A stretch of DNA of 64,000 bases from Escherichia coli (GTDB lineage Bacteria > Pseudomonadota > Gammaproteobacteria > Enterobacterales > Enterobacteriaceae): assembly GCF_044324875.1 (NCBI RefSeq), contig NZ_CP172185.1; one strand, given 5' to 3'. The notes beneath the pieces were generated by a model, which had not been told where the DNA came from, did no database searches, and saw only the letters and a list, made by a program, of their open reading frames with translations. The translations under genes were made by a program, and so were the position numbers. Shown in pieces: positions 44,168 through 64,000 of this stretch (position 1 is its first letter; each line of letters opens with the position of its first letter).

Positions 44168-44196
44168 AACGGACCTCCACGGAGGTCCGTTTTTCG
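44168..44196 (+). terminator. pheU terminator hairpin
   Basis: CGGACCTCC-AC-GGAGGTCCG inverted repeat followed by TTTTTCGTTT directly after the tRNA. Confidence 0.7.
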
Positions 44197-44354
44197 TTTC
44201 AGGACGCCACGATTTAAGCGTCCTGCCGCCAAATCAATTCTACCGAACTCAACCAGACTCCCCCCACATCAACCCCATTGTGTGGGTATAATTGCGGGTA
44301 TACCCCAGTTCGACAGAATTTGTACCCTCTTTAACGCATTCAGAAGGCTGAACT

Positions 44355-45617
44355 ATGGCACTGACTGACGCAAAAATCCGGGCTGCAAAGCACACTGACA
44401 AGGCTTATAAACTCACTGACGGGGCTGGCATGTTCCTGCTGGTACATCCTAATGGTTCCCGTTACTGGCGTCTCCGTTATCGCATTCTGGGTAAGGAGAA
44501 AACTCTGGCACTTGGTGTATACCCGGAGGTTTCTCTCTCCGAAGCTCGTACAAAACGGGATGAGGCCCGAAAACTGATTTCGGAGGGGATTGACCCTTGC
44601 GAACAGAAAAGAGCTAAAAAAGTAGTCCCTGATTTACAACTCTCTTTTGAACATATTGCACGACGCTGGCATGCCAGTAATAAACAATGGGCACAATCAC
44701 ACAGCGATAAGGTACTCAAAAGCCTCGAAACACACGTTTTCCCCTTTATCGGCAACCGGAACATCACAACACTCAATACCCCGGACCTGCTTATCCCTGT
44801 TCGTGCTGCAGAAGCTAAACAAATTTATGAAATCGCCAGTCGTCTGCAGCAAAGAATATCTGCTGTAATGCGTTATGCCGTACAGTCTGGCATCATCAGA
44901 TATAATCCTGCTCTGGATATGGCTGGCGCATTGACCTCTGTAAAACGACAGCATCGCCCCGCTCTTGATCTTTCACGTCTGCCTGAACTTCTGTCGCGTA
45001 TTAACAGTTATAAAGGTCAGCCTGTCACCCGGCTTGCTGTTATGCTGAATTTACTGGTTTTTATTCGCTCCAGTGAACTCAGATATGCCCGCTGGGCTGA
45101 AATTGATATTGACAATTCAATGTGGACTATTCCAGCCGAACGCAAACCTCTGCCAGGGGTAAAATTCTCACACCGGGGCTCCAAGATGCGAACACCACAT
45201 CTTGTGCCACTCAGCAAACAGGCTGTAGCCATACTGACAGAACTTCAGACATGGGCTGGTGAAAATGGTCTGATCTTTACGGGAGCACATGACCCGCGTA
45301 AACCAATCAGTGAAAATACCGTAAATAAGGCCCTCAGAGTGATGGGGTATGACACAACCAAGGAAGTCTGTGGCCATGGATTCCGGGCGATGGCGTGCAG
45401 TGCATTGATTGAATCAGGTTTGTGGTCCCGCGATGCTGTGGAACGTCAGATGAGCCATCAGGAGCGTAATGGTGTACGTGCTGCGTATATCCATAAAGCA
45501 GAACATCTGGAAGAACGTCGACTGATGCTACAGTGGTGGGCAGATTTTCTGGATGCGAACAGAGATAAGGGTATCAGCCCGTTTGAATATGCAAAGATTA
45601 ACAATCCATTAAAATAG
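44355..45617 (+). CDS. P4-type tyrosine integrase
   Basis: 420-aa ORF; N-terminus MALTDAKIRAAKHTDKAYKLTDGAGMFLLVHPNGSRYWRLRYR (phage-integrase arm domain); C-terminus with HGFRAMACS and RAAYIH (R..H..R..Y catalytic signature); sits about 200 bp from the tRNA. Confidence 0.9.
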   Translation: MALTDAKIRAAKHTDKAYKLTDGAGMFLLVHPNGSRYWRLRYRILGKEKTLALGVYPEVSLSEARTKRDEARKLISEGIDPCEQKRAKKVVPDLQLSFEHIARRWHASNKQWAQSHSDKVLKSLETHVFPFIGNRNITTLNTPDLLIPVRAAEAKQIYEIASRLQQRISAVMRYAVQSGIIRYNPALDMAGALTSVKRQHRPALDLSRLPELLSRINSYKGQPVTRLAVMLNLLVFIRSSELRYARWAEIDIDNSMWTIPAERKPLPGVKFSHRGSKMRTPHLVPLSKQAVAILTELQTWAGENGLIFTGAHDPRKPISENTVNKALRVMGYDTTKEVCGHGFRAMACSALIESGLWSRDAVERQMSHQERNGVRAAYIHKAEHLEERRLMLQWWADFLDANRDKGISPFEYAKINNPLK

Positions 45618-45620
45618 TAA

Positions 45621-45650
45621 GCAGTCCGGGCTGATTGCCCGGACTGCTTT
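45621..45650 (+). terminator. Hairpin terminator after the integrase gene
   Basis: GCAGTCCGGG-CTGATTG-CCCGGACTGC stem-loop followed by TTTAACTGATTATTTTTC. Confidence 0.55.
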
Positions 45651-46068
45651 AACTGATTATTTTTCTTTGTAAATGATGACGAAGATTGATGTTCTGGCAA
45701 GTTACTCCGGCTTCCATTAAAGTCCCTTCGTCATGTTCTTCAGGCTATTTATGACTGTGATTAGCACCAGGAATATCTGGTTTCCATGAGAGCAGGTAAT
45801 AACCCCCGGTGTTTTCGGCTGTTCTGGTATCCTTGTCCAACGCAGGCAGTCATTATAAACGGTAAAAAATGTATTCACTGTTATGAAATCAATAGTCCTG
45901 ACGTACTGTTGAATGTGCTTGCGTTCTGAACCTTGTACAACCAGTACATTTGATACCGAATTATAAGCAAAACATTGCATCCAACTTTTTCAATATGGAC
46001 AATAGTTGTCCATATGGTGGTTTTATATTCGATAAATCAATGGATTTCATTGAGTCATAGGACTGGTA

Positions 46069-49000
46069 ATGGATGAAAATGCTTTAGGGTTTGCCTCATA
46101 CTGGCGCAACTCGCTTGCGGACGCTGAGTCAGGAAAGGGCAGTTTTGAACGGAAAGACGCCAAAAATTTCACTCACTGGCATGGGATAGCGGCGGGACGT
46201 CTTGACGAAGCGATTGTCAGTAAATTTTTTAAGGGAGAAAAAGACGATGTCGAAACGGTCGATGTCATCTTGCGCCCAAAAGTTTATTTCCGGTTACTGC
46301 AGCATGGTAAGGACCGTTCTGCAGGTGCGCCTGATATTGTTACCCCGATAGTGACGCCAGCCTTGCTAAGCCGTGAGGGTTTTTTATATCCGACGCCAGC
46401 GACCTCCATTCCCAGAGACCTGCTTGAACCTTTGCCAAAAGGAGCATTTTCGATTGGTGAGATTGGGCAGTATGACAAATACAAGACGACCCATACCACG
46501 TTCTCTATCAACTTTGATGACAGCGTTGATAAGACTGCCGAAACGGATGAAGAACGGGAAGAACGATATGCAGCCTTGCAGCAGGAGTGGCGTCAATATC
46601 TGGATGATTCAGAGAGGCTGCTGAAGAACGTTGCCGGCGACTGGATTAAAAATCCTGAGCAATATGAACTCGCTGAGCACGGTTATATTGTTAAAACGGC
46701 GCAATCTGGCGGTGCCAGTTTCCATATCCTTTCTCTTTATGATCACCTGCTTGTTTGCAATAAGGATGTGCCGCTCTTCAATCGATTCGCCTCGCGAGAG
46801 GTTCATGCTGCAGAGTCTTTGCTGGCCCCTGGAGCAAAATTCAGCGACAGGCTTGGACACTCCGGAGATAAGTTTCCGCTGGCAAAGGCTCAGCGCGATG
46901 CCTTAAGCCATTTTCTGGATGCTAAACATGGCGATATCCTTGCTGTTAATGGCCCTCCTGGAACCGGAAAAACCACGCTGGTGCTTTCTATCATCGCCAC
47001 GCAGTGGGCCAGAGCGGCTCTCGAAAAATCTGAGCCTCCGGTTATTATCGCGACTTCAACGAATAACCAGGCTGTAACGAACATTATTGAGGCATTCGGG
47101 AAAGACTTTTCGCAAGGTTCAGGTGCGATGGCCGGGCGATGGTTGCCAGAGCTGAAAAGCTTCGGCGCTTATTTTCCCTCAGGCAGCCGTAAAGCTGAAG
47201 CAGCCAAAAAATATCAAACTGAAGATTTCTTCAACCAGGTTGAGTCAAAAGAGTATGTAGAAGATGCACTGCTGTTTTATCTGGAAAAGGCTAAGGCAGC
47301 CTTTCCTGAAAAAGAGTGTTCATCCCCTGAAAAGGTCATTGAACTCCTGCATGGTCAGTTGGCAGCAAAATCCGAGCAACTGATAAGACTGAACGCAACA
47401 TGGCAAAAGTTAAGCCAGATTCGGGCTGCGCGTGAGCTTATTGCTAATGATATTGAGCAATATCTCAATAATTTAAATAAATTACTTTCCGGACAAGAAC
47501 AAAAAATCACTCTACTGAAGAGTGCTAAAACGGAATGGAAAAAATATCGCGCCGGTGAATCACTGATCTATTCATTATTTTCCTGGCTTCCGGCGGTTCG
47601 CAGTAAGCGACAGTACCAAATACAGCTGTTTCTCGAAGATAAATTAGGTGCGCTGATTGCAGGAAATCAATGGTCTGATCCTGAAACTATCGAACGTAAT
47701 ATTGATGGGCTGCTCAATTCCGCTGAGCGCGAGCAAACAACATACCGGCAGCAGATTGACTCCGCCCATGAAATCATTCTTAAAGAACAGCAGGCGGTTC
47801 AGGAGTGGCAGAGACTGGCTCTTGATTTAGGGTATGAGGGCGACGAGGAACTGAGCTTCTCACAGGCCGATGAACTGGCTGATACGCAGATTCGCTTCCC
47901 TGCATTTTTACTGACGACTCACTACTGGGAAGGTCGTTGGCTGATGGATATGGCCAGCATTGATGATCTGCAGGAAGAGAAGAAGAAAAAAGGCGCTAAA
48001 GGGGTAACCGCCCGTTGGCAACGTCGAATGAAACTCACTCCATGTGTGGTGATGACATGCTATATGCTGCCCGGCAATATGCAGATAAGTGAGCACAAAG
48101 GACAGCGTAAATTCGAGAAAAGTTATTTGTATGATTTTGCCGATTTACTCATTGTCGATGAAGCCGGGCAGGTGCTTCCTGAAGTGGCTGCTGCCTCGTT
48201 TGCATTAGCTAAGAAGGCATTAGTGATTGGCGATACGGAGCAGATCCCGCCAATATGGAGTATTGCTCCTGCGATTGATATCGGTAACATGCTGGCGGAA
48301 AAAATTCTGTCTGGCAGTACGCAAGAAGAGATTACCGAGAAATATACGGCAATCGCAGACCTTGGTAAAAGTGCCGCATCTGGCAGCGTTATGAAAATAG
48401 CGCAGTTTGCTTCGCGCTATCAATATGATCCCGAACTGGCTCGTGGTATGTACCTATATGAACACCGCCGGTGCTACGACAATATTATTGGATACTGTAA
48501 TACGCTCTGCTATCACGGTAAGTTGTTGCCTAAAAGAGGGCGTGAAGAGAGCAATTTAATGCCCGCAATGGGGTATCTCCATATTGATGGTAAAGGAGAG
48601 CTGGCAAGTAGTGGAAGTCGATATAATTTGCTTGAGGCTGAAACGATAGCGGTCTGGTTGGCAGAGAACCAGCAAAATATTGAAGCGCATTACGGTAAAT
48701 CGCTTCATGAAGTTGTCGGTATTGTGACGCCTTTTAGCGCTCAGGTATCCACTATCAAACAGGTGCTGGGCAAACAAGGTATCAGTACAGGCACGAATGA
48801 AAAGTCGCTCACAGTGGGCACCGTGCACTCTCTTCAGGGAGCGGAAAGAGCGATTGTGATATTCTCGCCAGTCTATTCAAAACATGAAGACGGCGGGTTT
48901 ATTGATAGCGATAACAGCATGCTGAATGTTGCAGTCTCCCGTGCGAAGGACAGTTTTCTGGTCTTCGGCGATATGGACCTGTTTGAGGTCCAGCCAGCCT

Positions 49001-49584
49001 CATCGCCACGGGGATTACTGGCAAAATACCTCTTTGAGTCAGAGAAGAATGCGCTCTCTTTTGATTATAAAGAGCGTAAGGATTTAAAAACCGCCGGGAC
49101 CAAAATCTACACACTTCATGGTGTGGAGCAACATGATAATTTCCTGAATCAGACATTTGAAAATACCAGTAAACACATCACGATAGTTTCTCCATGGCTG
49201 ACCTGGCAAAGGCTGGAGCAAACCGGTTTTCTTGATTCCATGATTGCGGCGTGTTCACGTGGAATTAACGTCACGATAGTCACTGACAGAAGCTACAACA
49301 CTGAACATAATGATTTTGAGAAGCGAAAAGAGAAGCAGCAGAACTTTAAAGCGGCGCTGGAGAAACTGAATGCGCTGGGTATTGCTACAAAGCTGGTAAA
49401 CCGTGTTCATAGCAAAATTGTTATTGGTGATGATGGTTTGCTGTGCGTGGGATCGTTCAACTGGTTTAGTGCGACACGGGAAGCGCGATATGAACGATAC
49501 GATACATCAATGGTTTATTGCGGTGATAACCTGAAGGGTGAGATTGAGGCTATTTATAATAGTCTTGAGAGGCGGCAGGTTTAG
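46069..49584 (+). CDS. Upf1-like SF1 helicase fused to a C-terminal PLD-family (single HKD) nuclease domain; candidate anti-phage defence protein with Mokosh type II-like architecture
   Basis: 1171-aa ORF. Walker [10 protein letters not shown] (aa 295-303, nt 46951-46977); Walker [10 protein letters not shown] (nt 48145-48171); helicase motifs [19 protein letters not shown] and [16 protein letters not shown] (nt 48814-48972); C-terminal HSKIVIGDD...GSFNW = H-x-K-x4-D...GSxN (nt 49408-49464). Located beside the island integrase. Confidence 0.8.
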
Positions 49585-49600
49585 AGCAGGAATGGTGAGT

Positions 49601-49637
49601 AGCCATCTTACCGATCGTTTTCGAGCGTAAGATGGCT
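49601..49637. other. 11-bp perfect inverted repeat between the convergent helicase-PLD and sulfatase-family genes
   Basis: AGCCATCTTAC ... GTAAGATGGCT with 15-nt loop; no adjacent T-run, so terminator function is uncertain. Confidence 0.35.
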
Positions 49638-49692
49638 GAATGGAATGGCTATTATTGCACAGTCCTTAATTATAACATTCATACCGACATGA

Positions 49693-51192
49693 TTATCTTC
49701 TGCCCGGAAGAATCAGAGGCTGTGGTTTCAGACTGTCTGCCGGTACATTCCTGTCTCCGTTAAAAACAATAACGGGTTCATTATCTTCGTCTGTCAGCGG
49801 ATTGAATGGCGGTATATTTTCAGTACGAATGCCGGTCAGCCACTGAAAAATACCTGCGAAATGACGGGCACTGATTTTTCTGCTGACGGACTGATGAGAC
49901 GTGATGTCACTGGCGGTAATAATCAGGGGAACGCTGTAGCCTCCTTGTATATGGCCATCATGATGAACAGGATTAGCACTGTCGCTGACCGACAGACCAT
50001 GGTCAGAAAAGTAAAGCATGGCAAAATGACGGGAGTGCCGGCGAAGGATACCATCAAGCTGACCGAGAAAGTTATCCAGTTTACTGATGCTGGCGAGGTA
50101 ACAGGCAATCTTTCGGGGATACTGCTCCAGGTAATGATTCGGCCAGGAGTTAAGTCGGTCACACGGATTCGGATGAGAGCCAATCATGTGCAGGAATATC
50201 ACCTTCGGAGAGGATTTATCCGCCAGTGCACGTTCTGTTTCCTGTAACAACAACATGTCATCCGTTTTACGGGAAGCAAAGCTGCCTTTCTTGAGGAAAA
50301 CGGTATGCTCCGCATCAGAAGCAATAACAGAGATGCGTGTATCATGCTCCCCCAGTTTTCCCTGATTGGATATCCACCATGTGCTGTATCCTGCTTTTGC
50401 TGCCAGCGCCACCACGTTGTTGCCGGAGTCAGGGTTCTGCTCATAGTCATAAATCAGTGTCCGGCTCAGGGAAGGTACGGTACTGGCTGCTGCCGATGTA
50501 TAGCCGTCAATAAATAAACCGGGAGCCGTATTCAGCCATGGTGTGGTTGGCACGGGATAGCCATATACCGACATATAATCCCTGCGCACACTCTCACCAG
50601 TAACGATAACAATCGTGTCATACAACGGTGTTCCCGGCAGGATTTTCCAGTTGTCAGCCCCGTGCTGACTCAGTTGTTTATAACGCTGCATTTCACGCAA
50701 TGTGTCAGTTGTTCCCACAACAATTCCTTTAACCATCCGCAACGGCCAGCTGTTTACAGAGCATAATACGAACAGCAGCAGTGCCAGCCAGTTACGGTGA
50801 CCGCGGTGGTGTGTCCGCCAGAAAATCACCATGAATACCAGAATCGCGGCACTGACCAGAAAATGATAAACAGGAATCATCCCGGTAAACTCTGCAGCCT
50901 CATCAGCCGTGGTCTGCAGCAACGCGACAATAAAACTGTTGTTGATTTTACCGTACGTCATACCCGCAGGCGCATACAGTGCACAACAGAACAGAAATAA
51001 CAGCGTTGTAATGGATGTGAGGGTATTTCTGTGTGCAAGGAGCAGAAGGAGAAACAGAAGCAGCACATTTCCTGTGGCATTCTTCTCAGTGTATCCGCAT
51101 GCAATTGTGGTTATCACAGAAATAACAAAAAAGAATAAAAACAATAAAATCCGGGGTGTGTCGCCCGGACAAAACAGTTTTCTGATATTCAT
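49693..51192 (-). CDS. Sulfatase-family inner-membrane protein (phosphoethanolamine-transferase-like)
   Basis: 499-aa ORF; N-terminal ~130 aa strongly hydrophobic (multiple TM helices), C-terminal domain with VTGESVRRDY and HMIGSHPNP motifs resembling EptA/OpgE/LtaS-type transferases. Confidence 0.7.
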   Translation of the reverse strand: MNIRKLFCPGDTPRILLFLFFFVISVITTIACGYTEKNATGNVLLLFLLLLLAHRNTLTSITTLLFLFCCALYAPAGMTYGKINNSFIVALLQTTADEAAEFTGMIPVYHFLVSAAILVFMVIFWRTHHRGHRNWLALLLFVLCSVNSWPLRMVKGIVVGTTDTLREMQRYKQLSQHGADNWKILPGTPLYDTIVIVTGESVRRDYMSVYGYPVPTTPWLNTAPGLFIDGYTSAAASTVPSLSRTLIYDYEQNPDSGNNVVALAAKAGYSTWWISNQGKLGEHDTRISVIASDAEHTVFLKKGSFASRKTDDMLLLQETERALADKSSPKVIFLHMIGSHPNPCDRLNSWPNHYLEQYPRKIACYLASISKLDNFLGQLDGILRRHSRHFAMLYFSDHGLSVSDSANPVHHDGHIQGGYSVPLIITASDITSHQSVSRKISARHFAGIFQWLTGIRTENIPPFNPLTDEDNEPVIVFNGDRNVPADSLKPQPLILPGRR

Positions 51193-51373
51193 CGGAGTAT
51201 ATCGACAACATTATTATGAAGAGAACAGGATAATAAAAATCAGAAATTATCTGTAAAACAGATAACAGACAACCCTGCAGCAATAGACTGCAGGGTGTTT
51301 CTGTTTAATTGCAGAAGATATACAATTATATTAATTACAGAATATTCGTGATTATCTCTCGGGAACAGTGTTG

Positions 51374-52114
51374 TCAGAAGTTATAAGTCACACCAAGCAT
51401 GATGTCATGACTTTTAACATCAACTTCTGACTTATATTTATCGCCCCACTCGTCCTTGTAACTCACACTGCTGTCACCTGCATCAAGATAGCGATAGCTG
51501 AGGTCCAGAGCGATATCCGGGGTTACGTCATAGCGGACACCCGCGCCAAGGTTCCATGCGAAGTTGTCAGCAGAGCCTGAACGTGACAACGATTCGCGAC
51601 CACTGCTTCCGTACTCATAATCCCAGGTACTGATACCGGTTGTTTTCTGGTGAATTCTGGCGTAGCCAATCCCTGCAGATATCCAAGGTGTGAATGCGCT
51701 GTCATTCCGGAAGTCATAGTACGCATTCAGCATTAGTGTGTTGACTGACACCTCATTCTTCAGGTCATCACGCCAGTAACCACCTGACCAACTGTCTTTA
51801 TCTACGTTATACTTCGAATCAGCTTTTCCACGAGCGTAAAACTCCAGTTCTGTACGAACCGGAATACTGAACTGCGGATAAAAATCATAACCAGCCGCGA
51901 TACCACCACTGAATACCGTATCATGGTCATCGCCGCCTTTATACTTTGACGTTTCTTCCTCATCTCCTGACAGGAAACGCTGGTCTGAAAGTGACACCAC
52001 AGAGGTACCGGCTTTACCGGTCAGATAAAAACCGCTTTTACCTTCCTCAGCACCTGCATTTGCTGCAAATACACAGGCTGCGGCCACCACTGAAACAGCA
52101 AAAACCTTTTTCAT
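51374..52114 (-). CDS. Outer-membrane beta-barrel protein (Opa/Ail/OmpA-like)
   Basis: 246-aa ORF with signal peptide MKKVFAVSVVAAACVFAANAGA, alternating amphipathic strands rich in Y/G/D, and C-terminal ...GVTYNF (terminal Phe typical of OM beta-barrels). Confidence 0.7.
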   Translation of the reverse strand: MKKVFAVSVVAAACVFAANAGAEEGKSGFYLTGKAGTSVVSLSDQRFLSGDEEETSKYKGGDDHDTVFSGGIAAGYDFYPQFSIPVRTELEFYARGKADSKYNVDKDSWSGGYWRDDLKNEVSVNTLMLNAYYDFRNDSAFTPWISAGIGYARIHQKTTGISTWDYEYGSSGRESLSRSGSADNFAWNLGAGVRYDVTPDIALDLSYRYLDAGDSSVSYKDEWGDKYKSEVDVKSHDIMLGVTYNF

Positions 52115-52190
52115 TTCAATTATCTCCGTTATTGCTCCGTTGCTGCAAGCAGTACTCAGTGCATTTTAAAACCCGCCATGCTATAGCCTC

Positions 52191-52235
52191 AATCGAATAA
52201 AATCGATCGAATCGATCGATGATATCGATCGTCAT
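52191..52235. repeat. ATCGA(T)-rich low-complexity tract with overlapping ATCGAT palindromes
   Basis: AATCGAATAAAATCGATCGAATCGATCGATGATATCGATCG about 80 bp upstream of the OMP start codon. Confidence 0.6.
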
Positions 52236-52601
52236 TAACCAGAAATTTTTATCGTATTCAGTCAGCACAGACACAACAAATGCATGCCATGCAGGCAGCC
52301 ATGCCCCGTCGCGACAGATGGTAGCAGTGGGCTGGCGAAGAGCAGAATTAATAAAATTTGTTTATTCTGTCAGGAGATAAGGTGTCACCTGTTCATGAAC
52401 ACAATTAAGGAAGAGACATACATGAGCTGACTGGCAGTCCAGAGTGCATGCGGTTACAAGCCGGAAAGGTGAACCGGTATAACCAGTGAGCAGAGTTTGT
52501 GAAGGGGGGATATAAAAAAGCCCACTGCATGGCTGCGGGTAAAGAGTCAGTTATTTCCGGCGTTTTTCAAGGTAGTTGTCGCCTGATGTAATAAAATTAC
52601 G

Positions 52602-52960
52602 TTATGCCGCTTCTTTTTCTGGATTCAGATAAACTGCCTGAATGAGTTCCCAGTCACGCAACTGTTTGCTCCAGCGCTCAGGATGACGCTTGCGAGCTTC
52701 GCGATAAACTTTTTTTCTGGCTTCCAGTATTTGTGCATCAATTCCGCGATGGCGTTCATCCGGAGTAACATACTTAATACCGCTGTGCTTGTGTTCCAGG
52801 TTGTACCATTACGTGAACTTGCTTAACCAACTTCTGGCTTCATCTATGGTTCGAAAACCATTCTCCGGCCACCATGAACAATACTTAATCGTCCGGAAGA
52901 GCGATTCGGAATAAAGAAGTGTTACTGGCAGTTCTTTCATCGCATCAGTGAAAACCAGCA
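52602..52960 (-). pseudogene. Transposase C-terminal remnant (DDE integrase-core type, IS3-like), interrupted by a stop codon
   Basis: Minus-strand translation ...SLFRTIKY...WPENGFRTIDEARSWLSKFT*WYNLEHKHSGIKYVTPDERHRGIDAQILEARKKVYREARKRHPERWS...; no N-terminal part present. Confidence 0.5.
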
Positions 52961-52969
52961 GGGCACTGC

Positions 52970-53391
52970 TCACCAGAGCAACACAGGAAAGTGAACCCGA
53001 ACAAAAGTTCCTGTACCATTTTCTCCCAGCAGACGTGAGGCTTGTTCCAGTGACGCTGGTATACGTCCCAGCCGGACATCAAGTGCGCCGATGGCTATTG
53101 CCTGAAATCGCATCGTACAGCAAATCACCAACAGGACACCGACAGACATTAAAGGTAACCCCCTGTAATCCAGTAGTTCCGCCAGCCAGCGGTCATTTAG
53201 GGAGTCAGAAAACCAATCGCCAGAATCGTGCCCGGAAAGGCATAACCCAGCGACGCCCCTCTCATCACACCGCGCCTGAACAGTGGCATAGCGTTGAGGA
53301 ATTCCGGGCATTCCAGACTACGAGCAGACTGACAAAAATTACGACAAAGCGTTGAAGGAAGCCAGCGCGCGGACTGACAGGACTTTACCAT
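52970..53391 (-). pseudogene. ABC-transporter permease remnant (frameshifted fragments)
   Basis: Two overlapping minus-strand ORFs with permease-type motifs (...AMPLFRRGVMRGASLGYAFPGTILAIGFL...; ...LEQASRLLGENGTGTFVRVHFPVLLW); no intact gene. Confidence 0.4.
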
Positions 53392-53440
53392 AAAAACACA
53401 GGCTAACCGCGCCTGCGTTTTTAATGACGGATAAACAGAA

Positions 53441-55420
53441 TCAGGTGCCGATTATGCCGCCGTCGGCTTTTACGATAACGACAGTTGAGGAGCGCGGACG
53501 ACCAGCCTTATCGCCGTCAGGCCAGCTTGATACTGCCGTCGGATGCTGCGGATCGCTAAGCCCTTCGCTTGGCTCGCCAGGGTGCTGGATGTTAATAAAC
53601 AGCGTCCGGTTATCCGGAGTGAACGCGATGCCGGTGATTTCGCAGCCGCGCGGGCCGGTCAGGAAGCGGCGGAACTCATTGGTACCGGGGATCGTCGCCA
53701 CCATCTGGTTGTTGCCCATGCCTTTGTAATCTTTACTATTGATGGTTGATGACGACACGTCGGTCTGGATCCATAGCACGCCGCGGTGATCGAAGCTCAG
53801 GCCATCGGCGCTGCCGAATTCCGCCCCCTTCATGCTGCCTTTGGTTTCCGGTTTGTCCGTATCGGTGCGACCGCCCATCACAAGAATATCCCAGGCAAAC
53901 TGCAGCGCGGTCGGGTCACCGTTATGCTCCAACCAGTGAATGATGTGGCCGTAAACGTTTTTGGCGCGCGGGTTGGCCGCATCCACTGGCGCTTTTCCTT
54001 CCTTACCGCGATCGCTGTTGTTGGTGAGCGTGCAGTAAACGCTGCCGGCGTGATATGGATCGACCGCAATCCACTCCGGGCGGTCCATTTTAGTGGCCCC
54101 CACGGCGTCTGCCGCCAGACGGGTTTTAATCAACAGGTCGCCCTGGTTTTCAAACCCTTTACTGGCGTCGAGCCCATTTTGTCCGAACACCAGCGGTAGC
54201 CACTCGCCTTTGCCGTCGTCGTTAAATTTCGCCACGTACAGAGTGCCTTTTTCCAGCAGGTGCATGTTGGCTTTGCGATCCTGCGGGTTGAATTTTCCTT
54301 CCGAGACAAATTTATATATGTATTCGAATTTCTGGTCATCGCCCATATAGACCACAACGCGGTTATCCGGGGCAATTGTCACCGCTGCGCCTTCGTGTTT
54401 GATGCGACCAAGCGCGGTGTGCTTGCGCGGCACTGAATGCGGATCGTATGGATCGATTTCCACCACCCAGCCGAAGCGGTTCGGCTCGTTCGGCGTGGCG
54501 TCGACGCTGAACCTTTTATCCACTTCGTTCCAGCGGTAAGAGTCGTCGCTCCCGCTGATACCGTAACGTTTTTCCAGCGGGTTCATCTCTGCTTTTTTTA
54601 CGAAAATATCGGACCAGTTCTCTTCACACGTCAGATAGGTGCCCCACGGCGTAAATCCGTTGGCACAGTTCTGCATGGTGCCGAGAATGATTTCGCCTTT
54701 CGGATCGTCAACTGTTTGCATCAGTGGGTTATGCAGCGCCGGACCGGTGATTTTCATCGGCGTGTTAACGGTGATGCGGCGTGCGAAAGATGACGGGCGC
54801 ACCACTTCCCAGCCCAGGGGCACTTTTTTTACTTCAATGACCGACACGCCCATCGCGTTCTGGCCTTTAAGAGCTTTATCGGCGCTCCAGTTGGCATCGC
54901 CATCTTTAAACAGTAGACCGTTATCGATGTATTCATGGTTTATGGCAAGCAGGCCGTGATCGGAGCTGTTCCCGCCCTGCGGCAGGCTAAACCACGCCAT
55001 GCCGTCGTGGTGCATCCCGGCCTGCGCCGCCTGTTCTTCCGTGGTGTTGCTACCGTCGGTTTTAAAAACCGGCAGATTTCCGGCAATCCCGGTGGCGTCG
55101 CCCCATTTGTAGAAGGGCTTCGCGATGTATCCTTCCGGCACGATAACGGTATCTTCCGTGGAAACCGGCAGGCTGGTGAAACCGAGCGTCGTCGCTTTGC
55201 CGAGGTTACCGCTTGCTTTGGAGACCACTTTCGCCAGCGCGTTTTCCTGTTTCAGCAGAAATGGGAACGCTGCCGCGGCACCGGCGACCGTGCCGGCCTG
55301 TAACAGACGGCGGCGTGACAAATAAACTTCCGCCACCTGCGAAAACGCGCGGTTATCGCTCGGGTTACTGATTTCTTCACTATGCTCACGTTTGAATAAA
55401 GTTTTTAACGGTCTGCCCAT
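53441..55420 (-). CDS. PhoX-family phosphatase (DUF839) with Tat-type signal peptide
   Basis: 659-aa ORF; N-terminus ...SRRRLLQAGTVAGAAAAFPFL (twin-arginine-like); body matches the beta-propeller PhoX/DUF839 pattern. Confidence 0.75.
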   Translation of the reverse strand: MGRPLKTLFKREHSEEISNPSDNRAFSQVAEVYLSRRRLLQAGTVAGAAAAFPFLLKQENALAKVVSKASGNLGKATTLGFTSLPVSTEDTVIVPEGYIAKPFYKWGDATGIAGNLPVFKTDGSNTTEEQAAQAGMHHDGMAWFSLPQGGNSSDHGLLAINHEYIDNGLLFKDGDANWSADKALKGQNAMGVSVIEVKKVPLGWEVVRPSSFARRITVNTPMKITGPALHNPLMQTVDDPKGEIILGTMQNCANGFTPWGTYLTCEENWSDIFVKKAEMNPLEKRYGISGSDDSYRWNEVDKRFSVDATPNEPNRFGWVVEIDPYDPHSVPRKHTALGRIKHEGAAVTIAPDNRVVVYMGDDQKFEYIYKFVSEGKFNPQDRKANMHLLEKGTLYVAKFNDDGKGEWLPLVFGQNGLDASKGFENQGDLLIKTRLAADAVGATKMDRPEWIAVDPYHAGSVYCTLTNNSDRGKEGKAPVDAANPRAKNVYGHIIHWLEHNGDPTALQFAWDILVMGGRTDTDKPETKGSMKGAEFGSADGLSFDHRGVLWIQTDVSSSTINSKDYKGMGNNQMVATIPGTNEFRRFLTGPRGCEITGIAFTPDNRTLFINIQHPGEPSEGLSDPQHPTAVSSWPDGDKAGRPRSSTVVIVKADGGIIGT

Positions 55421-55842
55421 TGCGGTTTCCTTTCAAAAAATCGATTTCAAGGGGAATCATTTTTATGCACGTGAGTCTACGGAAAGATTGTTACGGAAAT
55501 ATAACAATTGTCATAAAAAACCGGCGATAAAATCATCTATGGTCGGGACGCGGTTTCAGGTATGATGTGAGGCTAGAATTCTGAACGCTCTCTTTTGTTG
55601 AGCATATATGGACGTCCCGGGTGAGGCAAGTACTGGTTCGATGCGGTTTGCGACCATATATCCGGCGTCGTTAGTAGGTTCAATGACCTGCGCCATGATG
55701 TTATCCGGGCCCTGTTTCCTAATCACTACACCGGTATTTGATTACCCAGGTCAACTTCAGACTGTTACAGGGGCGGTAGCCGTTATCTCATCAGTGAATG
55801 TAAACTCAGTTAAAAATATTTTCTATAACTTACTGTTTTTCT

Positions 55843-56026
55843 TTAATTCATCACAACGGCCTTCTGCATATTAAAATCAATACTATCGCTCAAAACACGC
55901 CAGATGATTCTTGTCAGCTTATTCGCCAGCGCACCAGTGGTTTTCAGGAACCCTCGACGGGCTTCCATCCTTTGCAGACAAATACTCAGACTGTCAGTGA
56001 GCTTTTTCACACAGCGCATTACAGAC
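55843..56026 (-). pseudogene. Transposase-like C-terminal fragment (family uncertain), cut by the IS911-like end
   Basis: Short minus-strand ORF ...TGALANKLTRIIWRVLSDSIDFNMQ... abutting the IS911-like terminal repeat at 56027. Confidence 0.3.
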
Positions 56027-56440
56027 TGAAATGGCACACTGAATTTGGTCACCTGAACAGAGGTGATATGCTCACCTCAGAACAAGACTGGTGCCCTAAT
56101 GAAAAAAAGAAATTTTAGCGCAGAGTTTAAACGCTAATCCGCCCAACTGGTTGTTGACCAGAACTATACGGTGGCAGATGCCGCCAAAGCTATGGATATC
56201 GGCCTTTCCACAATGACAAGATGGGTCAAACAACTGCGTGATGAGCGTCAGGGCAAAACACTAAAAGCCTCTCCGATGACACCAGAACAAATCGAAATAC
56301 GTGAGCTGAGGAAAAAGCTACAACGCATTGAAATGGAGAATGAAATATTAAAAAGGCTACTGCACTCTTGATGTCAGCCTCCCTGAACAGTTCTCTATAA
56401 TAGGGAAACTCAGGACACGTTATCCTTTGGTCACTCTCTG
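56027..56440 (+). mobile_element. IS911-like (IS3 family) left-end fragment with inactivated orfA
   Basis: Terminal repeat TGAAATGGCACACTGAATTTGGTCACCTGAACAG at 56027; orfA from ATG 56099 reads MKKRNFSAEFKR* (in-frame TAA), then ...[29 protein letters not shown]...IEMENEILK; right boundary approximate. Confidence 0.7.
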
Positions 56441-57310
56441 TGTAGTGGATCGGTAATTCAGGACACCTCATTTTCACTGTTAATGTTAAAAAGTGAAAAT
56501 GAGGTGATGCATGATCAAAACTCGTCGGACTAAACGTACCTTTTCCCCGGAGTTCAAGCTTGAAGCTATCGAACAGGTGGTTAAATACCAGCGTGATGTC
56601 AGAGAAGTCGCGCTGGCACTCGAGCTCAACCCTGACCATTTGCGTAAATAGATACGGTTGTATAAGCAGGAACTTCAGGGTATTGAGCCCGCTGGTAATG
56701 CTATTACTCCTGAACAACGCTAAATTAAGCAGCTTAAAGCGCAGATAAAGCGCCCTGAGATGGAAAAAGAAATACTAAAGCAGGCTGCCGTGCTGATGAG
56801 CGAAATCCCCGGGGAAACTGTCGCGCTAATCACACAGCTGAAAGCAAAGTGGCCAGTGCGGGTTCTTTGTCATTTATTCGGTATTCACCGTAGCATTTAT
56901 TACGCGCAGGTGAAGCGTCCTGTTAATGTGCAAAGAATTGAATTACGAAGTCGGGTGAGGGCTGTCCATGCTCTCAGTCGTGGCGCAGTCGGTAGCCGGG
57001 CAATCAGTCAGATGTTGCGCCATAGTGGCGTTGATGCAGGTCGGTGGCTGGCACGACGACTGATGCGGGAATGCGGGCTGACAAGTCGACAGCCAGTTAA
57101 ACATCACTACCGGGTAAACGAAGACAAAAGTCCGCCATTGCCAAATTTACTGAACCGGCAATTTCACCCCGCCGCACCAAACCGCGTCTGGTGCGGCAAC
57201 ATCAGTTTTATTCGCCTGCAGGACAAATGGTGTTATCTCGCACTCGTTGTTGATTTATATTCACGGCGGATTATCGGTTCAGCCCTCTCATTAACCGCTG
57301 ATGCTGAGTT
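56441..57310 (+). mobile_element. Second IS3-family element fragment (orfA and 5' part of orfB), truncated by the IS66 insertion
   Basis: orfA from ATG 56511 (MIKTRRTKRTFSPEFKLEAIEQVVKYQRDVREVALALELNPDHLRK*), orfB-like ORF 56760-57314 (...RVWCGNISFIRLQDKWCYLALVVDLYSRRIIG...) ending at the IS66 end; left boundary approximate. Confidence 0.6.
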
Positions 57311-57347
57311 GTAAGCGTACAGCGAGGGCCGTATTGACGGGGATGTG

Positions 57348-58886
57348 TTATTCAGCTGGCAGTGCTATGCGCCACGGAAGCAGTTCGCTGACCCGGTTGA
57401 CCGGCCAGTCTGCTATGACGCCAAGCACATGGCGAAGGTAGCTTTCTGGATCCACGTCATTCAGTTTGCACGTCCCTATCAGGCTGTACAGTAGCGCTCC
57501 CCGCTCACCACCATGGCCAGAGCCGAAGAACAGGAAGTTTTTACGACCCAGACTTACCGCCCGCAGGGCATTTTCAGCGATGTTGTTGTCGATTTCCACC
57601 CAGCCATCGTTCGCATAGTACGTCAGTGCCGGCCACTGGTTAAGTGCGTACGCGAACGCCTTCGCCAACTCTGAGTGTCGCGACAGGGTCTTCATCTTTT
57701 CACGCAACCAGCTTTCCAGGGATTTCAACAGCGGTTTCGTTTTTCGCTGACGTTCAGCAAGCCGCTGCTCTGCCGGCATTCCCCTTATATCCGCCTCTAT
57801 GGCGTACAACTGACCGATCTGCTCCAGGGCTTCTTCCGTCAGTGCTGACGGGATGCGGACGTGCACATCGTGGATCTTTCGGCGGGCATGAGCCCAGCAG
57901 GCAGCTTCCGTTATCCCACCATTGCGATACAGCTCGTTGAACCCGGCGTACGCATCCGCTTGCAGCACACCGCTGAAGCAAGCAAGATGAGTCTGCGGAT
58001 GGATGCCTTTTCTGTCCGGGCTGTAAGCGAACCACACTGCAGGTGCCAACGCTGACCCGGCATTGCGGTCATCACGAACATACGCCCACAACCGCCCGGT
58101 CTTCGTCTTCTTATTACCCGGCATCAGTACCTGGACCGGGGTATCATCGGCATGGAGTTTGCCGTCAGTCATGACATAGCCATGAAGCGCCTCTTCCAGC
58201 GGAGACAGCAGCCGGCAGCATGCATCCACCCAGCCCGACAGCAGTGAACGGCTCAGCTCCACACCTTGCCGGCCGTATATTTCTGACTGGCGATACAGCG
58301 GGGTGTGCTCTGCATACTTCGAGGTCAGCACGCGGGCCAGCAGCCCCGGTCCGGCGATACCCCGCTCGATGGGCCGCGAAGGTGCAGGTGCCTGCACGAT
58401 GGCATCGCACTGAGTACAGGCATGTTTTTCCCGTACCGTCCGGATAACCCGGAAGGCGCTACGCATCAACTCCAGCTGTTCGGCGGTATCCTCGCCCAGA
58501 TAGCTCAGTGAACCGCCGCAGTTCGGGCAGCACGGCGCCGCAGGCAACAGTCGCTTTTCGTCACGGGGTAGTGATTCAGGGAACGGCTTACGGATGCGGG
58601 TCTGACGCAACGGACGCTGTACTGCCGGGTCATACACCCTACCAGTCAGCGTATCGCTCTCTTTCTGAAGCCGGTTCAGATCGGCTTCCATTTGTGCGAT
58701 ACGGCGGGAGACTTTTTCGGAACGACTGCCGAAGTTCATCCGGCGGAGTTTATCCAGCTGCGCCTGCAGATGGTCTATTTCGCGCTCCCGGTTGCTCAGC
58801 TTTTCCTGCAGGGCGTGGATCAGCGCTTCCTGTTCGGCCAGGCGCTGTTTCAGCAGGAAGATGTCGTCAGAAGAGATGTCGTTCAT
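57348..58886 (-). CDS. IS66-family transposase TnpC
   Basis: 512-aa ORF with N-terminal leucine-zipper/coiled-coil ([24 protein letters not shown]), Cys-rich zinc-finger region (CPNCGG...CTQCD) and DDE core. Confidence 0.88.
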
Positions 58887-58935
58887 AAGCCCGTATTTTA
58901 CCGGGCTTATTCTGTGACAACCAGGATAAAGAGAT

Positions 58936-59283
58936 TTACAGCATGGTCAGGGAGGTCAGCAGCCGCTTAGGCTGTCGCCAGTCGATACCTTCCAGCAGCA
59001 TCGCCAGCTGCGCCTGTGTAAGGAACACTTTGCCATCACGGGCTGACGGCCAGGCGAAGCGCCCACGCTCCAGCCGTTTGGTCAGGAGGCACAGTCCGTC
59101 ACCGGTGGACCACAGCAGTTTAACCTGACTGCCGCTGCGGCCCCGGAAAATGAAAACATGGCCGGACATGGGATCGTCTTTCAGCGCCGTCTGTACTTTC
59201 GCAGCCAGGCCGTTGAAGCCATTTCTCATATCGGTGATACCGGCAACCAGCCAAATTTTGGTCCCGGAAGGTAAAGGGATCAT
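58936..59283 (-). CDS. IS66 accessory protein TnpB (orf2)
   Basis: 115-aa [34 protein letters not shown]... Confidence 0.85.
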
Positions 59284-59681
59284 CGCTTCAGTTCCTGTAT
59301 CAGCAGAGTCAGGAGCTTTTCGCTGACATTGCCATTGAAGCGGAGCGTCCCGTGCCGGAACGTTACCTCACAGCTGATACTGAGGGTTTCCGGGTCCTCT
59401 GCGAGCGATTCTGGCTGTTCGGCAGCTGCATCGAGAGTCACAGGAAGTAGCTGGGGGCTCTCTGAAGAAGGTAATAGCAGCTTTCCCTCGCGCCATTGTT
59501 GTCGCCATTTGAACAACAGATTGGCGTTAATGCCATTTTCAAGAGCAAGTTTTGAGATGGATATCCCGGGTTCACAGGAGGCAGCAACGAGCTGCTGTTT
59601 AAATTCGGGAGGATAATTAGGGCAGCCTTTTCGCCTGCCGGGAGTCACATTTTTCTGCATATCTGACACTTTGGTTCCCAC
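59280..59681 (-). CDS. IS66 accessory protein TnpA (orf1)
   Basis: 133-aa ORF; 4-bp overlap with tnpB. Confidence 0.8.
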   Translation of the reverse strand: MGTKVSDMQKNVTPGRRKGCPNYPPEFKQQLVAASCEPGISISKLALENGINANLLFKWRQQWREGKLLLPSSESPQLLPVTLDAAAEQPESLAEDPETLSISCEVTFRHGTLRFNGNVSEKLLTLLIQELKR

Positions 59682-59752
59682 TACTTATTTGGTGGACACC
59701 ACTTTGTCTAATTCGTCAGATTCTGACCAGACGGTTCAGGCTGTACGCTTAC

Positions 59753-61833
59753 GCCTGACCGGTGTCTCTGGTGACATATTCCGGAGCTCCGGAGAGAGTA
59801 AAGGTAACGCGATCATCGGCAGAAGCATCTCCATACTGCAGATGCCCGTCGTTGGGGATCATGGCCAGTTTGCCGTAATAGCGATACACATTGTATTCAT
59901 CCTGTGTATAGCCAAAGAAGGACTGATTATTCAGTTGTGAACCCGACAGGCTGACAAACTCGCTGGCAAGAAGATGACTTCCCGTATTATCCAGTTTGTT
60001 CGCGTCAATCAGCAGATTATTACCGGCCGAAATTCTGGCATCCCCCCCTGTTGCACCAACATCGACGCGTGTTGTGCCAGTCAGAAATTTCCGGGTGGCT
60101 CCCTTTTCAGTCGGAACGGCCCATGCCTCAAAACCACCACCGGCAGTACCGCTCCAGGACTTCACATAATATCCCCATCCATTTTCACCTAAATCGCCCA
60201 CTCTGACTGAAACAGAATTTACACCATCAGGTACTGCGACATTCTCAACCGGAATGTATGATTTTGTCTCATTTATACCCTCCCGCTGATTCAGTAAATG
60301 TCCGGTTCTGATGGTGATATCACCGCGGGTGGTTTCGATATTCCCGGAGGTATTAATCACTTCAGCATTCGCGGCACCACTGACATCTTTCTGCATCACC
60401 AGGCTGTAACCCGCCAGCATATCGCCGTGATGGTTCCGGATGGTGCTGGCAAACAGCGAGAGGTTATTGCCCGCATACAACAGTGCGGTGTTAATGACTG
60501 CCCCGGCGACCGTTAACACCAGACTACCCGTCGTGCCGGTAAAACCGTCGAGAGTGATATCTCCCCTGCTGGTCAGGCTGACGTCCCCGCCTGCCTGCAG
60601 GCTGCCGCTGGCATTCATCGCAATCCCGCTGCCGCTCAGTGCCGTGGTGCCGTTGCCGGCGGTCAACTGGCCATTGTTGGTCAGCCTGCCTGCAGCATTC
60701 AGCGTGATACCGTTGCCCTGCAATGTGGCGCCATTGGTAATATCACCCTGGCTGCTGACGGAGAGTTGTTTATTCGCGGCGATAACGCCCTGTGCGGTCA
60801 AACCACGTGTGAGCTTCAGCGTCAGGTTACCGAGTGCAACCAGCTGGCCCGCGCCGCTGAGCGAGACCATTTCAGCAAGCATATCACCGCCGCTGAACAC
60901 CTTCCCGCCGGCGTTGTTCAGGCTGTTCCCTTTTATTGTCAGGCCCTGATTACCCAGCAGCGTGCCGCTGTTGGTGATGGTCTGCGTGTTGACGTTCAGT
61001 TGTGCAGCCTGGAACAGGCCACGGTTGGTCAGACTGTTACCTGTGAGCGTTGCCTGATTCGCCGCCATCACAGTGCCATTACCGGCAAGCTTCGCCACGT
61101 TCAGCAGCAGGTCAGTGGCCTGTAGCCAGCCACTGCCACTGTAGTCCGGCGTGGTGAACGTCAGCTCACCGCCGGAAAGAATCTTGCCACTGTTGTGGGC
61201 CTGCGTTGCCGCGCTGAGCGTGGTTTTACCGTTGCCCTGAATGGTGCCGTCATTAGTCAGCACAGGTGCAGAAAGCGCTGATACGTTCTGACTGAGAAGC
61301 ACACCGCTGGTCTGGTTGGTCAGGGCATTCAGCAATGTAAGAGTCAGCCCGCTGTCGCCCTGCACACGACCTGAGTTGGTCAGCGAACTGGCGGTGATTC
61401 GGTTATCCGCCCCCTGAAGCTGCCCACTATTGCTGATGTCTCTGGCGTTGACGTTTAATGTACCGCCTGTCAGCATTTTACCGTGCTGTTGCAGATTACC
61501 ACTGAGTGTCACATTCAGGCTGTTAACACCACTGATTTCGCCACCGTTGCTGAGCGAATCACCATTCACTTCCAGCGTCTTCGCGCTGATTAATCCCTTG
61601 TTACCCAGCACTTTCCCGGTAAGGCGGGCATCGCCCAGGGCGGTAATTTTGCTGCCGGTGGCAGCAATAACATCGCCACTCAGGGTCAGAGCCAACTCCA
61701 GCGCACTCTGAACAGCACCGCTGCTGGTCAGGCTGCTGGCATCCAGAGTAATGTTCTGCCCCTGAATCCGGCCGCTGTTGGTCACATCTCCTGCGCTCAG
61801 CGTCAGCGAGTTCTGGCTCGATCCGCGCACCAC
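59753..61833 (-). pseudogene. Internal fragment of a filamentous-haemagglutinin / CdiA-like two-partner-secretion exoprotein
   Basis: 694-aa minus-strand ORF made of degenerate repeats (...LTNSGRVQG..., ...LNNAGGKVFSGGDM..., ...GNSLTNRGLFQAAQLNVN...); no TPS secretion domain; reading frame terminates inside the IS66 terminal repeat. Confidence 0.7.
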
Positions 61834-61872
61834 TTATCCCGAACTGCGTCAGCAGTTGATCGGAGGTACACC

Positions 61873-62424
61873 ATGAAACGCATTCTGACCCGTGGCCTGG
61901 CGCTGCTGATGCTGATGCTCGCCGGCTGCAGCATCGAGGTCACCGAGTACCGGCAGCAGCAGCCCGCCCTCGACATCTTCCACTATTTTCAGGGTCGAAC
62001 CGAGGCGTGGGGGATGGTGCAGGATCGCCGCGGTAAACAGCTGCGCCGCTTCCATGTAGCGATCGATGGCGACGTCGTCGGCGACACCCTGACGCTCCAT
62101 GAGCGCTTTGTCTATGACGATGGCGAGAAACAGCAGCGGGTGTGGCGCATTCGCCGCACCGGCGATAACCATTATCAGGGCACCGCCGGGGATATCGAAG
62201 GCGTGGCCAGCGGCCAGGCGGCAGGCAATGCCTTTCACTGGCGCTACAGCATGAACGTCGAGGCCAGCGGCAGCCGGTGGCTGCTGCACTTTGACGACTG
62301 GATGTTCCTGCAGGACGGCAGCCATTTGTTTAACAAAACCGAGATGAAGAAATTCGGCATTACGGTGGCCACCGTGACCCTTTTCTTTACCCGAACCACA
62401 GCAGAAGAGAGGACAGCGCCATGA
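61873..62424 (+). CDS. Putative lipoprotein
   Basis: 183-aa ORF with signal peptide and lipobox MKRILTRGLALLMLMLAGCS; stop overlaps the next gene's start (ATGA); high-GC codon usage. Confidence 0.65.
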   Translation: MKRILTRGLALLMLMLAGCSIEVTEYRQQQPALDIFHYFQGRTEAWGMVQDRRGKQLRRFHVAIDGDVVGDTLTLHERFVYDDGEKQQRVWRIRRTGDNHYQGTAGDIEGVASGQAAGNAFHWRYSMNVEASGSRWLLHFDDWMFLQDGSHLFNKTEMKKFGITVATVTLFFTRTTAEERTAP

Positions 62425-63380
62425 ACACGCAACCTGTCATTGGGATCAGCGGATGTTTAACCGGCTCAGCCGTGCGATTCGACGGCGGGCATAAGCGTAT
62501 GGGCTTTGTGATGGATGAGCTCGCGCAGTGGGTGGCGTTTAAGCCCGTCTGCCCGGAGATGGCGATCGGCCTGCCCGTTCCCCGCCCGGCGCTCCGGCTG
62601 GTGCAGACCCCGGTCGGGGAGATCCGCATGCGCTTCAGCCACGCCCCGCACGAGGATGTGACGGAGAAGATGGCCGATTTCGCCAACGCCCATCTGGCAA
62701 CCCTGGGCGAGCTGTCGGGCTTTATCGTCTGCGCCAAATCGCCGATCTGCGGGATGGAGCGCGTGCGGCTGTATGATGAAAAAGGCAATCGCGGGCGTAA
62801 GGAAGGCGTGGGGCTGTTTACCGGCGCCCTGATGGCGCGCTACCCGTGGCTTCCGGTGGAAGAGGATGGCCGGCTGCACGATCCGCTGCTGCGGGAGAAT
62901 TTTGTCGAGCGCGTCTTCGCCCTGCATGAACTCAACGCCCTGCGCGCCCGCGGCCTGACCCGCCACGGCCTGCTGGCCTTTCACAGCCGCTACAAGCTGC
63001 AGCTGCTGGCTCACCACCAGGCGGGCTACCGCGAGATCGGCCCCTTCGTCGCCTCGCTGCATGAATGGGAGGATCTGGAGGCTTTCTTCGAGGTCTATCG
63101 CGAAAAGCTGATGGCGATCCTCAAGCGGCCCGCCTCTCGGAAAAACCACACCAACGTGCTGATGCATATTCAGGGTTATTTCCGCGACCAGCTGAACAGC
63201 CGCCAGCGCGGCGAGCTGCGGGAGGTGATCCTCAACTATCGCGCCGGGCTGCTGCCGATCCTCGCGCCGCTGACGCTGCTTAAGCACTATCTGGCCGAGT
63301 ATCCGGATCGCTACCTGCAGGCGCAGAACTATTTTGACCCCTACCCGCAGGATCTTGCCCTGCGCCTGACGGTGAACTGA
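62421..63380 (+). CDS. YbgA-like protein (DUF523 plus DUF1722-type)
   Basis: 319-aa ORF MNTQPVIGISGCLTGSAVRFDGGHKRMGFVMDELAQWVAFKPVCPEMAIGLP...; high GC and Leu/Arg/Ala-rich composition. Confidence 0.6.
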   Translation: MNTQPVIGISGCLTGSAVRFDGGHKRMGFVMDELAQWVAFKPVCPEMAIGLPVPRPALRLVQTPVGEIRMRFSHAPHEDVTEKMADFANAHLATLGELSGFIVCAKSPICGMERVRLYDEKGNRGRKEGVGLFTGALMARYPWLPVEEDGRLHDPLLRENFVERVFALHELNALRARGLTRHGLLAFHSRYKLQLLAHHQAGYREIGPFVASLHEWEDLEAFFEVYREKLMAILKRPASRKNHTNVLMHIQGYFRDQLNSRQRGELREVILNYRAGLLPILAPLTLLKHYLAEYPDRYLQAQNYFDPYPQDLALRLTVN

Positions 63381-63395
63381 GGGAACCTGGGCCAG

Positions 63396-63616
63396 CTGCC
63401 CGGCGGCGCTGCGCTTGCGCGGGCCTGGGAGGGGATCCCGCAGGCCTCCTCAGGAACGTAGGCCGGATAAGGCATTTATGCCGCCATCCGGCACAACCAC
63501 AGGTATGGAGCTTGAAGTGTCCTGCCCGGCGGCGCTGCGCCTGCCGGGCCTGGGGGGTATCCCGCAGGCCTCCTCAGAAACGTAGGCCGGATAAGGCATG
63601 TATGCCGCCATCCGGC
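63396..63616. repeat. Two tandem ~97-bp REP/BIME-type palindromic repeat units
   Basis: Units 63396-63492 and 63522-63616, about 90% identical, each containing TAGGCCGGATAAGGCAT(T/G)TATGCCGCCATCCGGCA. Confidence 0.8.
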
Positions 63617-63692
63617 ATAAATGGAGCGCACCAGTCGTAGCCCGGCTAAGCGTAGCGCCAGCCGGGAACGCTCCTTCGACAACGCTATCGCA

Positions 63693-64000
63693 TCAGAACC
63701 ACGCCTCAAACATCCCGCCGACGTTCAGCGAATCCAGCTGCTGGTCTTTGGTGCCGTTGACCTTAGCGGTATGCTCGTTGTCCACCTGACCGCCGGTCAC
63801 GTAGAAGCGCAGCATCGGACGGAACTCCGGCCCCATGCCGATGGCGATGTTCTGCGACAGCGTCAGCTTCCAGCCGTGGTTATCCCCGCCCTGGTCGTAG
63901 TCCACGCGCTGGTAGCCCGCTTCCAGCCAGGTGGAGTGCACGTCGTTCCAGAAGTACATCGGCCGCACGATGGCACCGTAGTTTTTGCGGTTGTCGGTAT
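63693..64000 (-). CDS. LamB-family sugar porin, C-terminal part (gene runs off the window end)
   Basis: Minus-strand ORF ending ...DSLNVGGMFEAWF*, resembling maltoporin-type C-termini; frame open to the window edge. Confidence 0.55.
   Translation of the reverse strand, partial: TDNRKNYGAIVRPMYFWNDVHSTWLEAGYQRVDYDQGGDNHGWKLTLSQNIAIGMGPEFRPMLRFYVTGGQVDNEHTAKVNGTKDQQLDSLNVGGMFEAWF

Follow-up and report, generated by a model that had tools for sequence, protein, structure and literature searches.

A 694-codon open frame beside ISEc8 in an Escherichia coli genomic island is probably an inactive remnant of a class III cdiA gene

The 694-codon open frame described here, found in a 64-kb stretch of Escherichia coli DNA (the window), is very probably the inactive residue left by the two-step decay of a class III cdiA gene within a tRNA-associated genomic island. 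The fragment amounts to about one fifth of cdiA and comes from the middle of the gene. Judged from its sequence, it appears to have lost every functional attribute of a contact-dependent inhibition (CDI) effector and to be cdiA by descent only.

Results

The open frame derives from the middle of a class III cdiA

A six-frame list of open reading frames places the frame on the minus strand at 59749..61833, with a GTG start; from the local base composition, the probability of a 694-codon open frame arising by chance is ~2e-13. In BLASTP the fragment aligns without gaps to WP_001680718.1, the 3236-aa CdiA of strain N1, and 674 of 689 residues agree (98% identity). Its DNA is 98.3% identical to annotated cdiA over the full length, and tblastn and blastn agree on this assignment. 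The N1 cdiA is flanked by cdiB, encoding ShlB/POTRA domains, and by a YezG-like cdiI. Since the TPS, FHA-2, PT-VENN and toxin domains of WP_001680718.1 all lie outside residues 877-1565 (Table 1), the fragment is internal and truncated at both ends. The original prediction had described it in just these terms, as an orphan internal piece of a large adhesin, and its position within a full-length CdiA is now located.

Table 1. Coordinates of the features discussed in the text (window positions, or residues of WP_001680718.1)
Feature	Position	Strand	Remarks
cdiA-derived pseudogene fragment	codons 59752..61818	-	689 codons, residues 877-1565 of WP_001680718.1
FHA-1 beta-helical repeat portion	60379..61818	-	codons ~6-485; PF05594, TIGR01731; GC 0.57-0.60
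N-terminal ~2/3 of class III (Tsx-type) receptor-binding domain	59752..60378	-	cut at residue 1565
Fortuitous start GTG GTG CGC GGA TCG (MVRGS)	61819..61833	-	from sequence, alignment and PGAP remnant
5' breakpoint, 8-bp microhomology TCTGGCTC	61812-61819		common to cdiA and the Klebsiella-derived block
ISEc8 (IS66 family)	57311..59752	-	2442 bp; 22-bp inverted repeats; tnpA, tnpB, tnpC
Klebsiella-derived block	61820..64000, runs past the window	+	DUF3833 61873-62424, YbgA 62421-63380, LamB-like porin 3' end
TPS in WP_001680718.1	residues 36-288
FHA-2 in WP_001680718.1	residues around 2377-2550
PT-VENN in WP_001680718.1	residues 2893-2942		VENN at 2936
Endonuclease_NS_2 toxin in WP_001680718.1	residues 3097-3221

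Ruhe et al. 2017 (PMC5371414) include WP_001680718.1 in their Table S3 among the class III effectors, which use Tsx as receptor. The receptor-binding region of E. coli CdiA is situated between FHA-1 and FHA-2 (S1347-Y1636 in EC93, A1345-W1668 in EC536), and the class III polymorphisms of this region reach residue 1654 in STEC_O31 numbering (PMC5371414). N1 numbering equals STEC_O31 numbering plus 2, and the catalogued polymorphisms E1438 and E1494 are found at the expected places. In its receptor-binding part the fragment differs from WP_001680718.1 at only three residues, one of them being the catalogued D1481N. The fragment thus carries receptor-binding-region sequence of the CdiA-STEC_O31 type (class III), and sequence homology marks it as a descendant of cdiA. 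It is, on this basis, a relic of a CDI locus specifically and not of a generic FhaB/HecA adhesin. The original prediction had named a CDI or an adhesin locus as its source; the first half of that proposal stands and the second can be dropped.

The fragment retains FHA-1 repeats and part of the receptor-binding domain

The FHA-1 repeats are recognized by PF05594 (Fil_haemagg; Pfam, E=1.6e-11) in three stretches and by TIGR01731, the 20-residue FHA repeat model, at 21.4 bits for a cut-off of 18 (NCBIfam). The frame had been thought to consist only of degenerate haemagglutinin-type repeats, but its last ~210 residues (~30%) belong to the receptor-binding domain. The GC content of this part is 0.495, against 0.57-0.60 in the repeat part, and the drop at codon ~478 fits the published left boundary of the domain (EC93 S1347, EC536 A1345). 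Paralogous similarity to other FHA-1 stretches of CdiA ends at window position ~60379. From these two independent signals, GC and paralogy, the boundary between FHA-1 and the receptor-binding domain is placed at fragment codon ~478-485.

The receptor-binding domain is incomplete, with ~210 of its ~300 residues present; the cut residue, 1565 in N1, corresponds to 1563 in STEC_O31 numbering. Binding of Tsx by such a truncated domain is doubtful. A PDB sequence search with the fragment returned no match at E<=0.01. In Pfam, no TPS (PF05860), FHA-2 (PF13332), PT-VENN (PF04829) or toxin domain was detected in the fragment, unlike in the intact homologue, which bears out the earlier statement that the TPS, C-terminal toxin and pre-toxin regions are lacking. 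Beginning at residue 877, the fragment has neither the Sec signal nor the TPS transport domain, and its N-terminus (MVRGSSQNSLTLSAGD...), read directly from the sequence, contains no hydrophobic signal sequence.

The 5' junction fuses cdiA to a Klebsiella-derived block

The 5' breakpoint was determined in a four-way alignment of the window, the N1 cdiA, LH50-c and the plasmid p027_SK3a. The window tracks cdiA up to TCTGGCTC and, from the same octamer on, the DUF3833 block, in front of which LH50-c keeps the natural upstream gene. The cdiA-derived DNA is thus confined to 59753..61819. A compositional break had previously been placed near 61835-61850; the true junction is 15-35 bp away, and cdiA DNA ends at 61819, not at 61848. 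The composition shift at the junction is modest, from 0.555 to about 0.61. A BLAST match to cdiA that extends to 61834 was discarded, the alignment revealing chance similarity past the 8-bp microhomology.

The start of the frame lies on the far side of this junction. Its first five codons and the TAA that precedes them are read from the opposite strand of what is left, at the 3' end, of the gene normally found before DUF3833, and PGAP annotates the plus-strand remnant upstream of DUF3833 as 'hypothetical protein, missing N-terminus'. The GTG start and the first five codons are, therefore, an accident created by the 5' junction. The frame had been said to have no start context. Strictly, a fortuitous GTG is present, but it was made by the junction and directly follows an in-frame TAA; the GGGA upstream of it is only weak and badly spaced. 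Gene callers select the second GTG, at 61830, to yield a 693-aa product. An exact-protein look-up of the 694-aa frame gave no match, probably because of these 693-aa calls together with a private K/Q substitution in the window.

The Klebsiella-derived block is 96-97% identical to 97 Klebsiella records, with a GC content of 0.61-0.66. Its DUF3833 protein is a lipoprotein, and its YbgA carries DUF523/DUF1722. The block has taken the place of cdiB and the first 876 codons of cdiA.

Some further features of the block were observed. In sibling genomes it continues into xylA and into genes for an MFS transporter, GH43, an HNH protein and a restriction enzyme of ScoMcrA-like, phosphorothioate-dependent type. 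The intergenic stretch that separates ybgA from the porin gene contains, at 63396-63620, a ~100-bp unit in two direct copies, 82-88% identical and spaced by 124-126 bp, each built around a GCCGGATAAGGC REP-like core. On two E. coli plasmids (p027_SK3a, 7990-8010 of the locus), the Klebsiella block is joined to an IS903-like inverted repeat (...TTATTCAACAAAGCC) at a point only ~2 bp upstream of the cdiA/block microhomology of the window, which gives two independent breakpoints within 10 bp. This pairing may be a coincidence, or it may be the trace of an IS903-bounded transposon that brought the block.

ISEc8 forms the 3' junction

The element at the other end of the fragment, named 'IS66-like element ISEc8 family transposase' by PGAP, has the characters of ISEc8, namely a length of ~2.4 kb, inverted repeats starting with GTAAGCG and the gene order tnpA-tnpB-tnpC. 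The homology to cdiA stops at 59753, within the codon for Ala694, which takes GC from cdiA and G from ISEc8. The following TAA (59749-59751) belongs to ISEc8 and is situated inside its right 22-bp inverted repeat (59731-59752), so that the frame does stop, as originally proposed, in an IS66 terminal repeat.

No 8-bp target-site duplication accompanies the element, which is flanked by TGCTGAGT on the left and GCCTGACC on the right and does not, in this respect, look like a simple insertion. Since the flanks are not a duplication, ISEc8 joins two unrelated sequences. To the left lies a disrupted IS3-family transposase gene, an arrangement identical to that of strain B771, in which ISEc8 is followed by the rest of the IS3 element and a serine-protease autotransporter cluster. 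The reciprocal junction, composed of the 3' part of cdiA, GCCTGACC and the left end of ISEc8, occurs in none of 5426 complete genomes, which fits a deletion without proving one. On plasmids, no ISEc8/cdiA junction was found.

The ISEc8 copy of B771 is likewise devoid of a target-site duplication. The 37 bp adjacent to the left inverted repeat (57274-57310) are present in the window, in B771 and in three other assemblies and are missing from the selC-island copies of A65EC, ES1 and GF43. The loss of these 37 bp and the missing duplication in B771 suggest small IS-adjacent deletions.

The doubly truncated module is shared by several islands

The core part of the window is 99.5% identical to many E. 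coli chromosomes; it includes three tandem tRNA-Gly(GCC) genes at 14508-14927. A tRNA-Phe gene (44082-44157) marks the left end of the genomic island, which contains an integrase, an AAA protein, a phosphoethanolamine transferase, an OMP, PhoX and IS3 remnants. The region 44000-64000 as a whole is covered by no complete RefSeq E. coli genome, and collinearity with A65EC is limited to 52457-64000. The segment 59400-62500, which spans both junctions, matches five complete RefSeq chromosomes (A65EC, ES1, ST38, GF43 and I2) at 99.9-100% identity. These are independent genomes from different countries and hosts, and both junctions also recur in several other NCBI assemblies. In A65EC, ES1, GF43 and I2, PGAP marks the span of the fragment as an incomplete pseudogene, in the words 'beta strand repeat-containing protein; incomplete; missing N-terminus and C-terminus'. 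The DUF3833 protein recurs without change in 712 assembly blocks, and most of the long contigs read show the arrangement ISEc8-fragment-DUF3833.

The doubly truncated module resides at tRNA-Phe in the window and three other loci, at tRNA-Sec (selC) in A65EC, ES1, ST38 and GF43, and in a different context in I2. This variety of island sites points to spread by recombination among islands. In I2 (8066-13895 of the locus), ECs1377-family, HTH, YagK/YfjJ and H-NS genes lie to the left of ISEc8. These genes are normally upstream of cdiB, and an IS3 element interrupts them at the point where cdiB would start. They could hint at an origin of the fragment in situ, but they are only 90% identical to the N1 locus and in permuted order; the set may be the trace of a second, separately destroyed cdi locus.

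A longer remnant indicates the order of events

CP034843.1 carries the identical junction between codon 877 and DUF3833, with 98.7% identity across it and no ISEc8. There, at 2485-9962 of the locus, cdiA persists through the Endonuclease_NS_2 toxin and is followed by a YezG-like cdiI, beside an integrase and tRNA-Leu(CAA); three indels already split the cdiA remnant into frames of 911, 1239 and 261 aa. This remnant represents an earlier stage in the decay of the same cdiA. Since it possesses the 5' junction but lacks ISEc8, the 5' truncation is older than the 3' loss associated with ISEc8. ZYB39 was also considered as the ancestral state and was ruled out, its IS66-family element being on the 5' side and its breakpoints being others.

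Collectively, these comparisons can be assembled into a history of two losses. In the first step, which the comparison of loci shows directly, an illegitimate join at TCTGGCTC fused cdiA codon 877 to the Klebsiella-derived DUF3833-ybgA-porin block. Lost in this step were cdiB and the promoter, together with the first 876 codons of cdiA and thereby its signal peptide and TPS domain. In the second, an ISEc8-associated event set the right end of ISEc8 against codon 1565. The breakpoint of this step is read from the sequence and its mechanism we infer: ISEc8 could have deleted adjacent DNA through intramolecular transposition, or it could have inserted first, with two ISEc8 copies recombining later. 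The event removed the last third of the receptor-binding domain, the YP, FHA-2 and pre-toxin regions, the Endonuclease_NS_2 toxin and cdiI. The distal part of the FHA-1 filament and two-thirds of a Tsx-type receptor-binding domain are left over, and this relic is a passive passenger in the recombination of islands among pheU, selC and other sites.

Partner genes are missing and constraint appears relaxed

Searches by tblastn with CdiB and CdiI detected no other piece of cdiA, cdiB or cdiI in the 64-kb window; the fragment has no linked cdiB and cdiI. A query combining a unique anchor with cdiB matched the five sibling chromosomes at the anchor only, in one place each, so that no cdiB-like DNA is present in these five chromosomes. 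In A65EC there is no second copy of this cdiA region. Since export signal, CdiB partner, toxin and immunity gene are all lacking, the fragment cannot perform contact-dependent inhibition.

Variation in the fragment was counted in 21 loaded truncated copies, some loci being the same genome fetched twice. The copies differ at eight sites, seven nonsynonymous and one synonymous. By comparison, the fixed differences from the intact N1 allele number 32, of which 14 are nonsynonymous and 18 synonymous. The contrast (7:1 versus 14:18, Fisher p=0.046; neutral site ratio 2.95) relies on only eight polymorphic sites and, within the limits of this small sample, fits purifying selection that ended with the truncation. 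All 21 copies, whose divergence is at most 0.2%, keep the frame open; it remains so because the relic is young.

The same open frame is what would favour expression of the fragment from the junction-made GTG as a shortened protein, either an intracellular beta-helix or a decoy with a partial Tsx-binding domain. The 694 codons are intact in every copy, and gene callers do predict the 693-aa product. However, no promoter-like site was found upstream on the minus strand, and the poor setting of the GTG, behind a TAA and with a weak, misplaced GGGA, argues against translation. A product would have neither a signal peptide nor a TPS domain, no CdiB encoded in the sibling chromosomes and a receptor-binding domain without its last third. 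The excess of nonsynonymous polymorphism fits relaxed constraint, and the longer relative in CP034843.1 is already frameshifted. We consider such expression very unlikely.

A role as a silent cassette, modelled on orphan cdiA-CT/cdiI modules, would seem equally improbable. In this scheme the fragment would be kept as a donor of FHA-1 and class III receptor-binding sequence for recombination with an incoming or resident cdiA, and the domain is indeed preceded by 1.4 kb of conserved FHA-1 sequence. The homology is, however, one-sided, as the domain is cut and followed by ISEc8, which makes a domain-swapping double crossover impossible. Moreover, the sibling chromosomes offer no cdiA or cdiB as a partner, and there is no sign of selection for retention. 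There is thus little chance either that the frame is translated into a cytoplasmic or leaked beta-helix that alters the class III CDI susceptibility of its carrier, or that it acts as a one-sided donor reshaping an incoming cdiA; the sole support for these ideas in the sequence is that the frame is intact.

Two further possibilities can be practically discarded. Misassembly is frequent in repeat-rich genes and at IS elements, but an assembly or sequencing artefact hiding an intact gene is scarcely conceivable when identical junctions, both supported base by base, recur in five complete RefSeq chromosomes and further NCBI assemblies. Pfam and NCBIfam detect only the generic Fil_haemagg repeat family, as would be expected of a non-CDI filamentous haemagglutinin adhesin of the FhaB/HecA type, but such an origin has next to no probability given the near identity, in protein and DNA, to an annotated cdiA beside cdiB and cdiI and a closest protein catalogued as class III CdiA. 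An inactive remnant of class III cdiA is, consequently, the reading we retain.

Discussion

CdiA with its class III receptor-binding domain, ISEc8 and the decay that IS elements drive in island genes are already known, and PGAP flags the pseudogene. The value of the present case is therefore modest; it lies in a cleanly resolved, stepwise decay of a CDI locus in which an intermediate survives and both breakpoints are base-exact, the relic having reached islands at several tRNA sites. In annotation, the 693/694-aa 'protein' is not to be counted as an adhesin or as a CDI system, and at this locus carriers of the relic lack a cdiI gene.

With class III CdiA of the CdiA-STEC_O31 / WP_001385946.1 group, the fragment shares the FHA-1 repeats and the Tsx-type sequence, including E1438, E1494 and N1481. 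It differs from its closest allele, WP_001680718.1, in that it keeps only residues 877-1565 of 3236 and has no adjacent cdiB or cdiI.

Orphan cdiA-CT/cdiI modules consist of a toxin-encoding CT and its cognate immunity gene, usually with a stretch of pre-toxin homology. Like the fragment, they are promoterless, 5'-truncated pieces of cdiA in genomic islands. The fragment is not such a module: no VENN motif, toxin or cdiI is present in it or in the window.

ZYB39 (NZ_CP098234.1) also carries a cdiA pseudogene abutted by an IS66-family element. There, unlike in the window, the IS lies at the 5' side, and most of cdiA (8.2 kb) and orphan modules remain. A further relative is the remnant of CP034843.1, located in the leuX island, which has the same 5' junction and, unlike the window, keeps codons 1566 to the end and cdiI.
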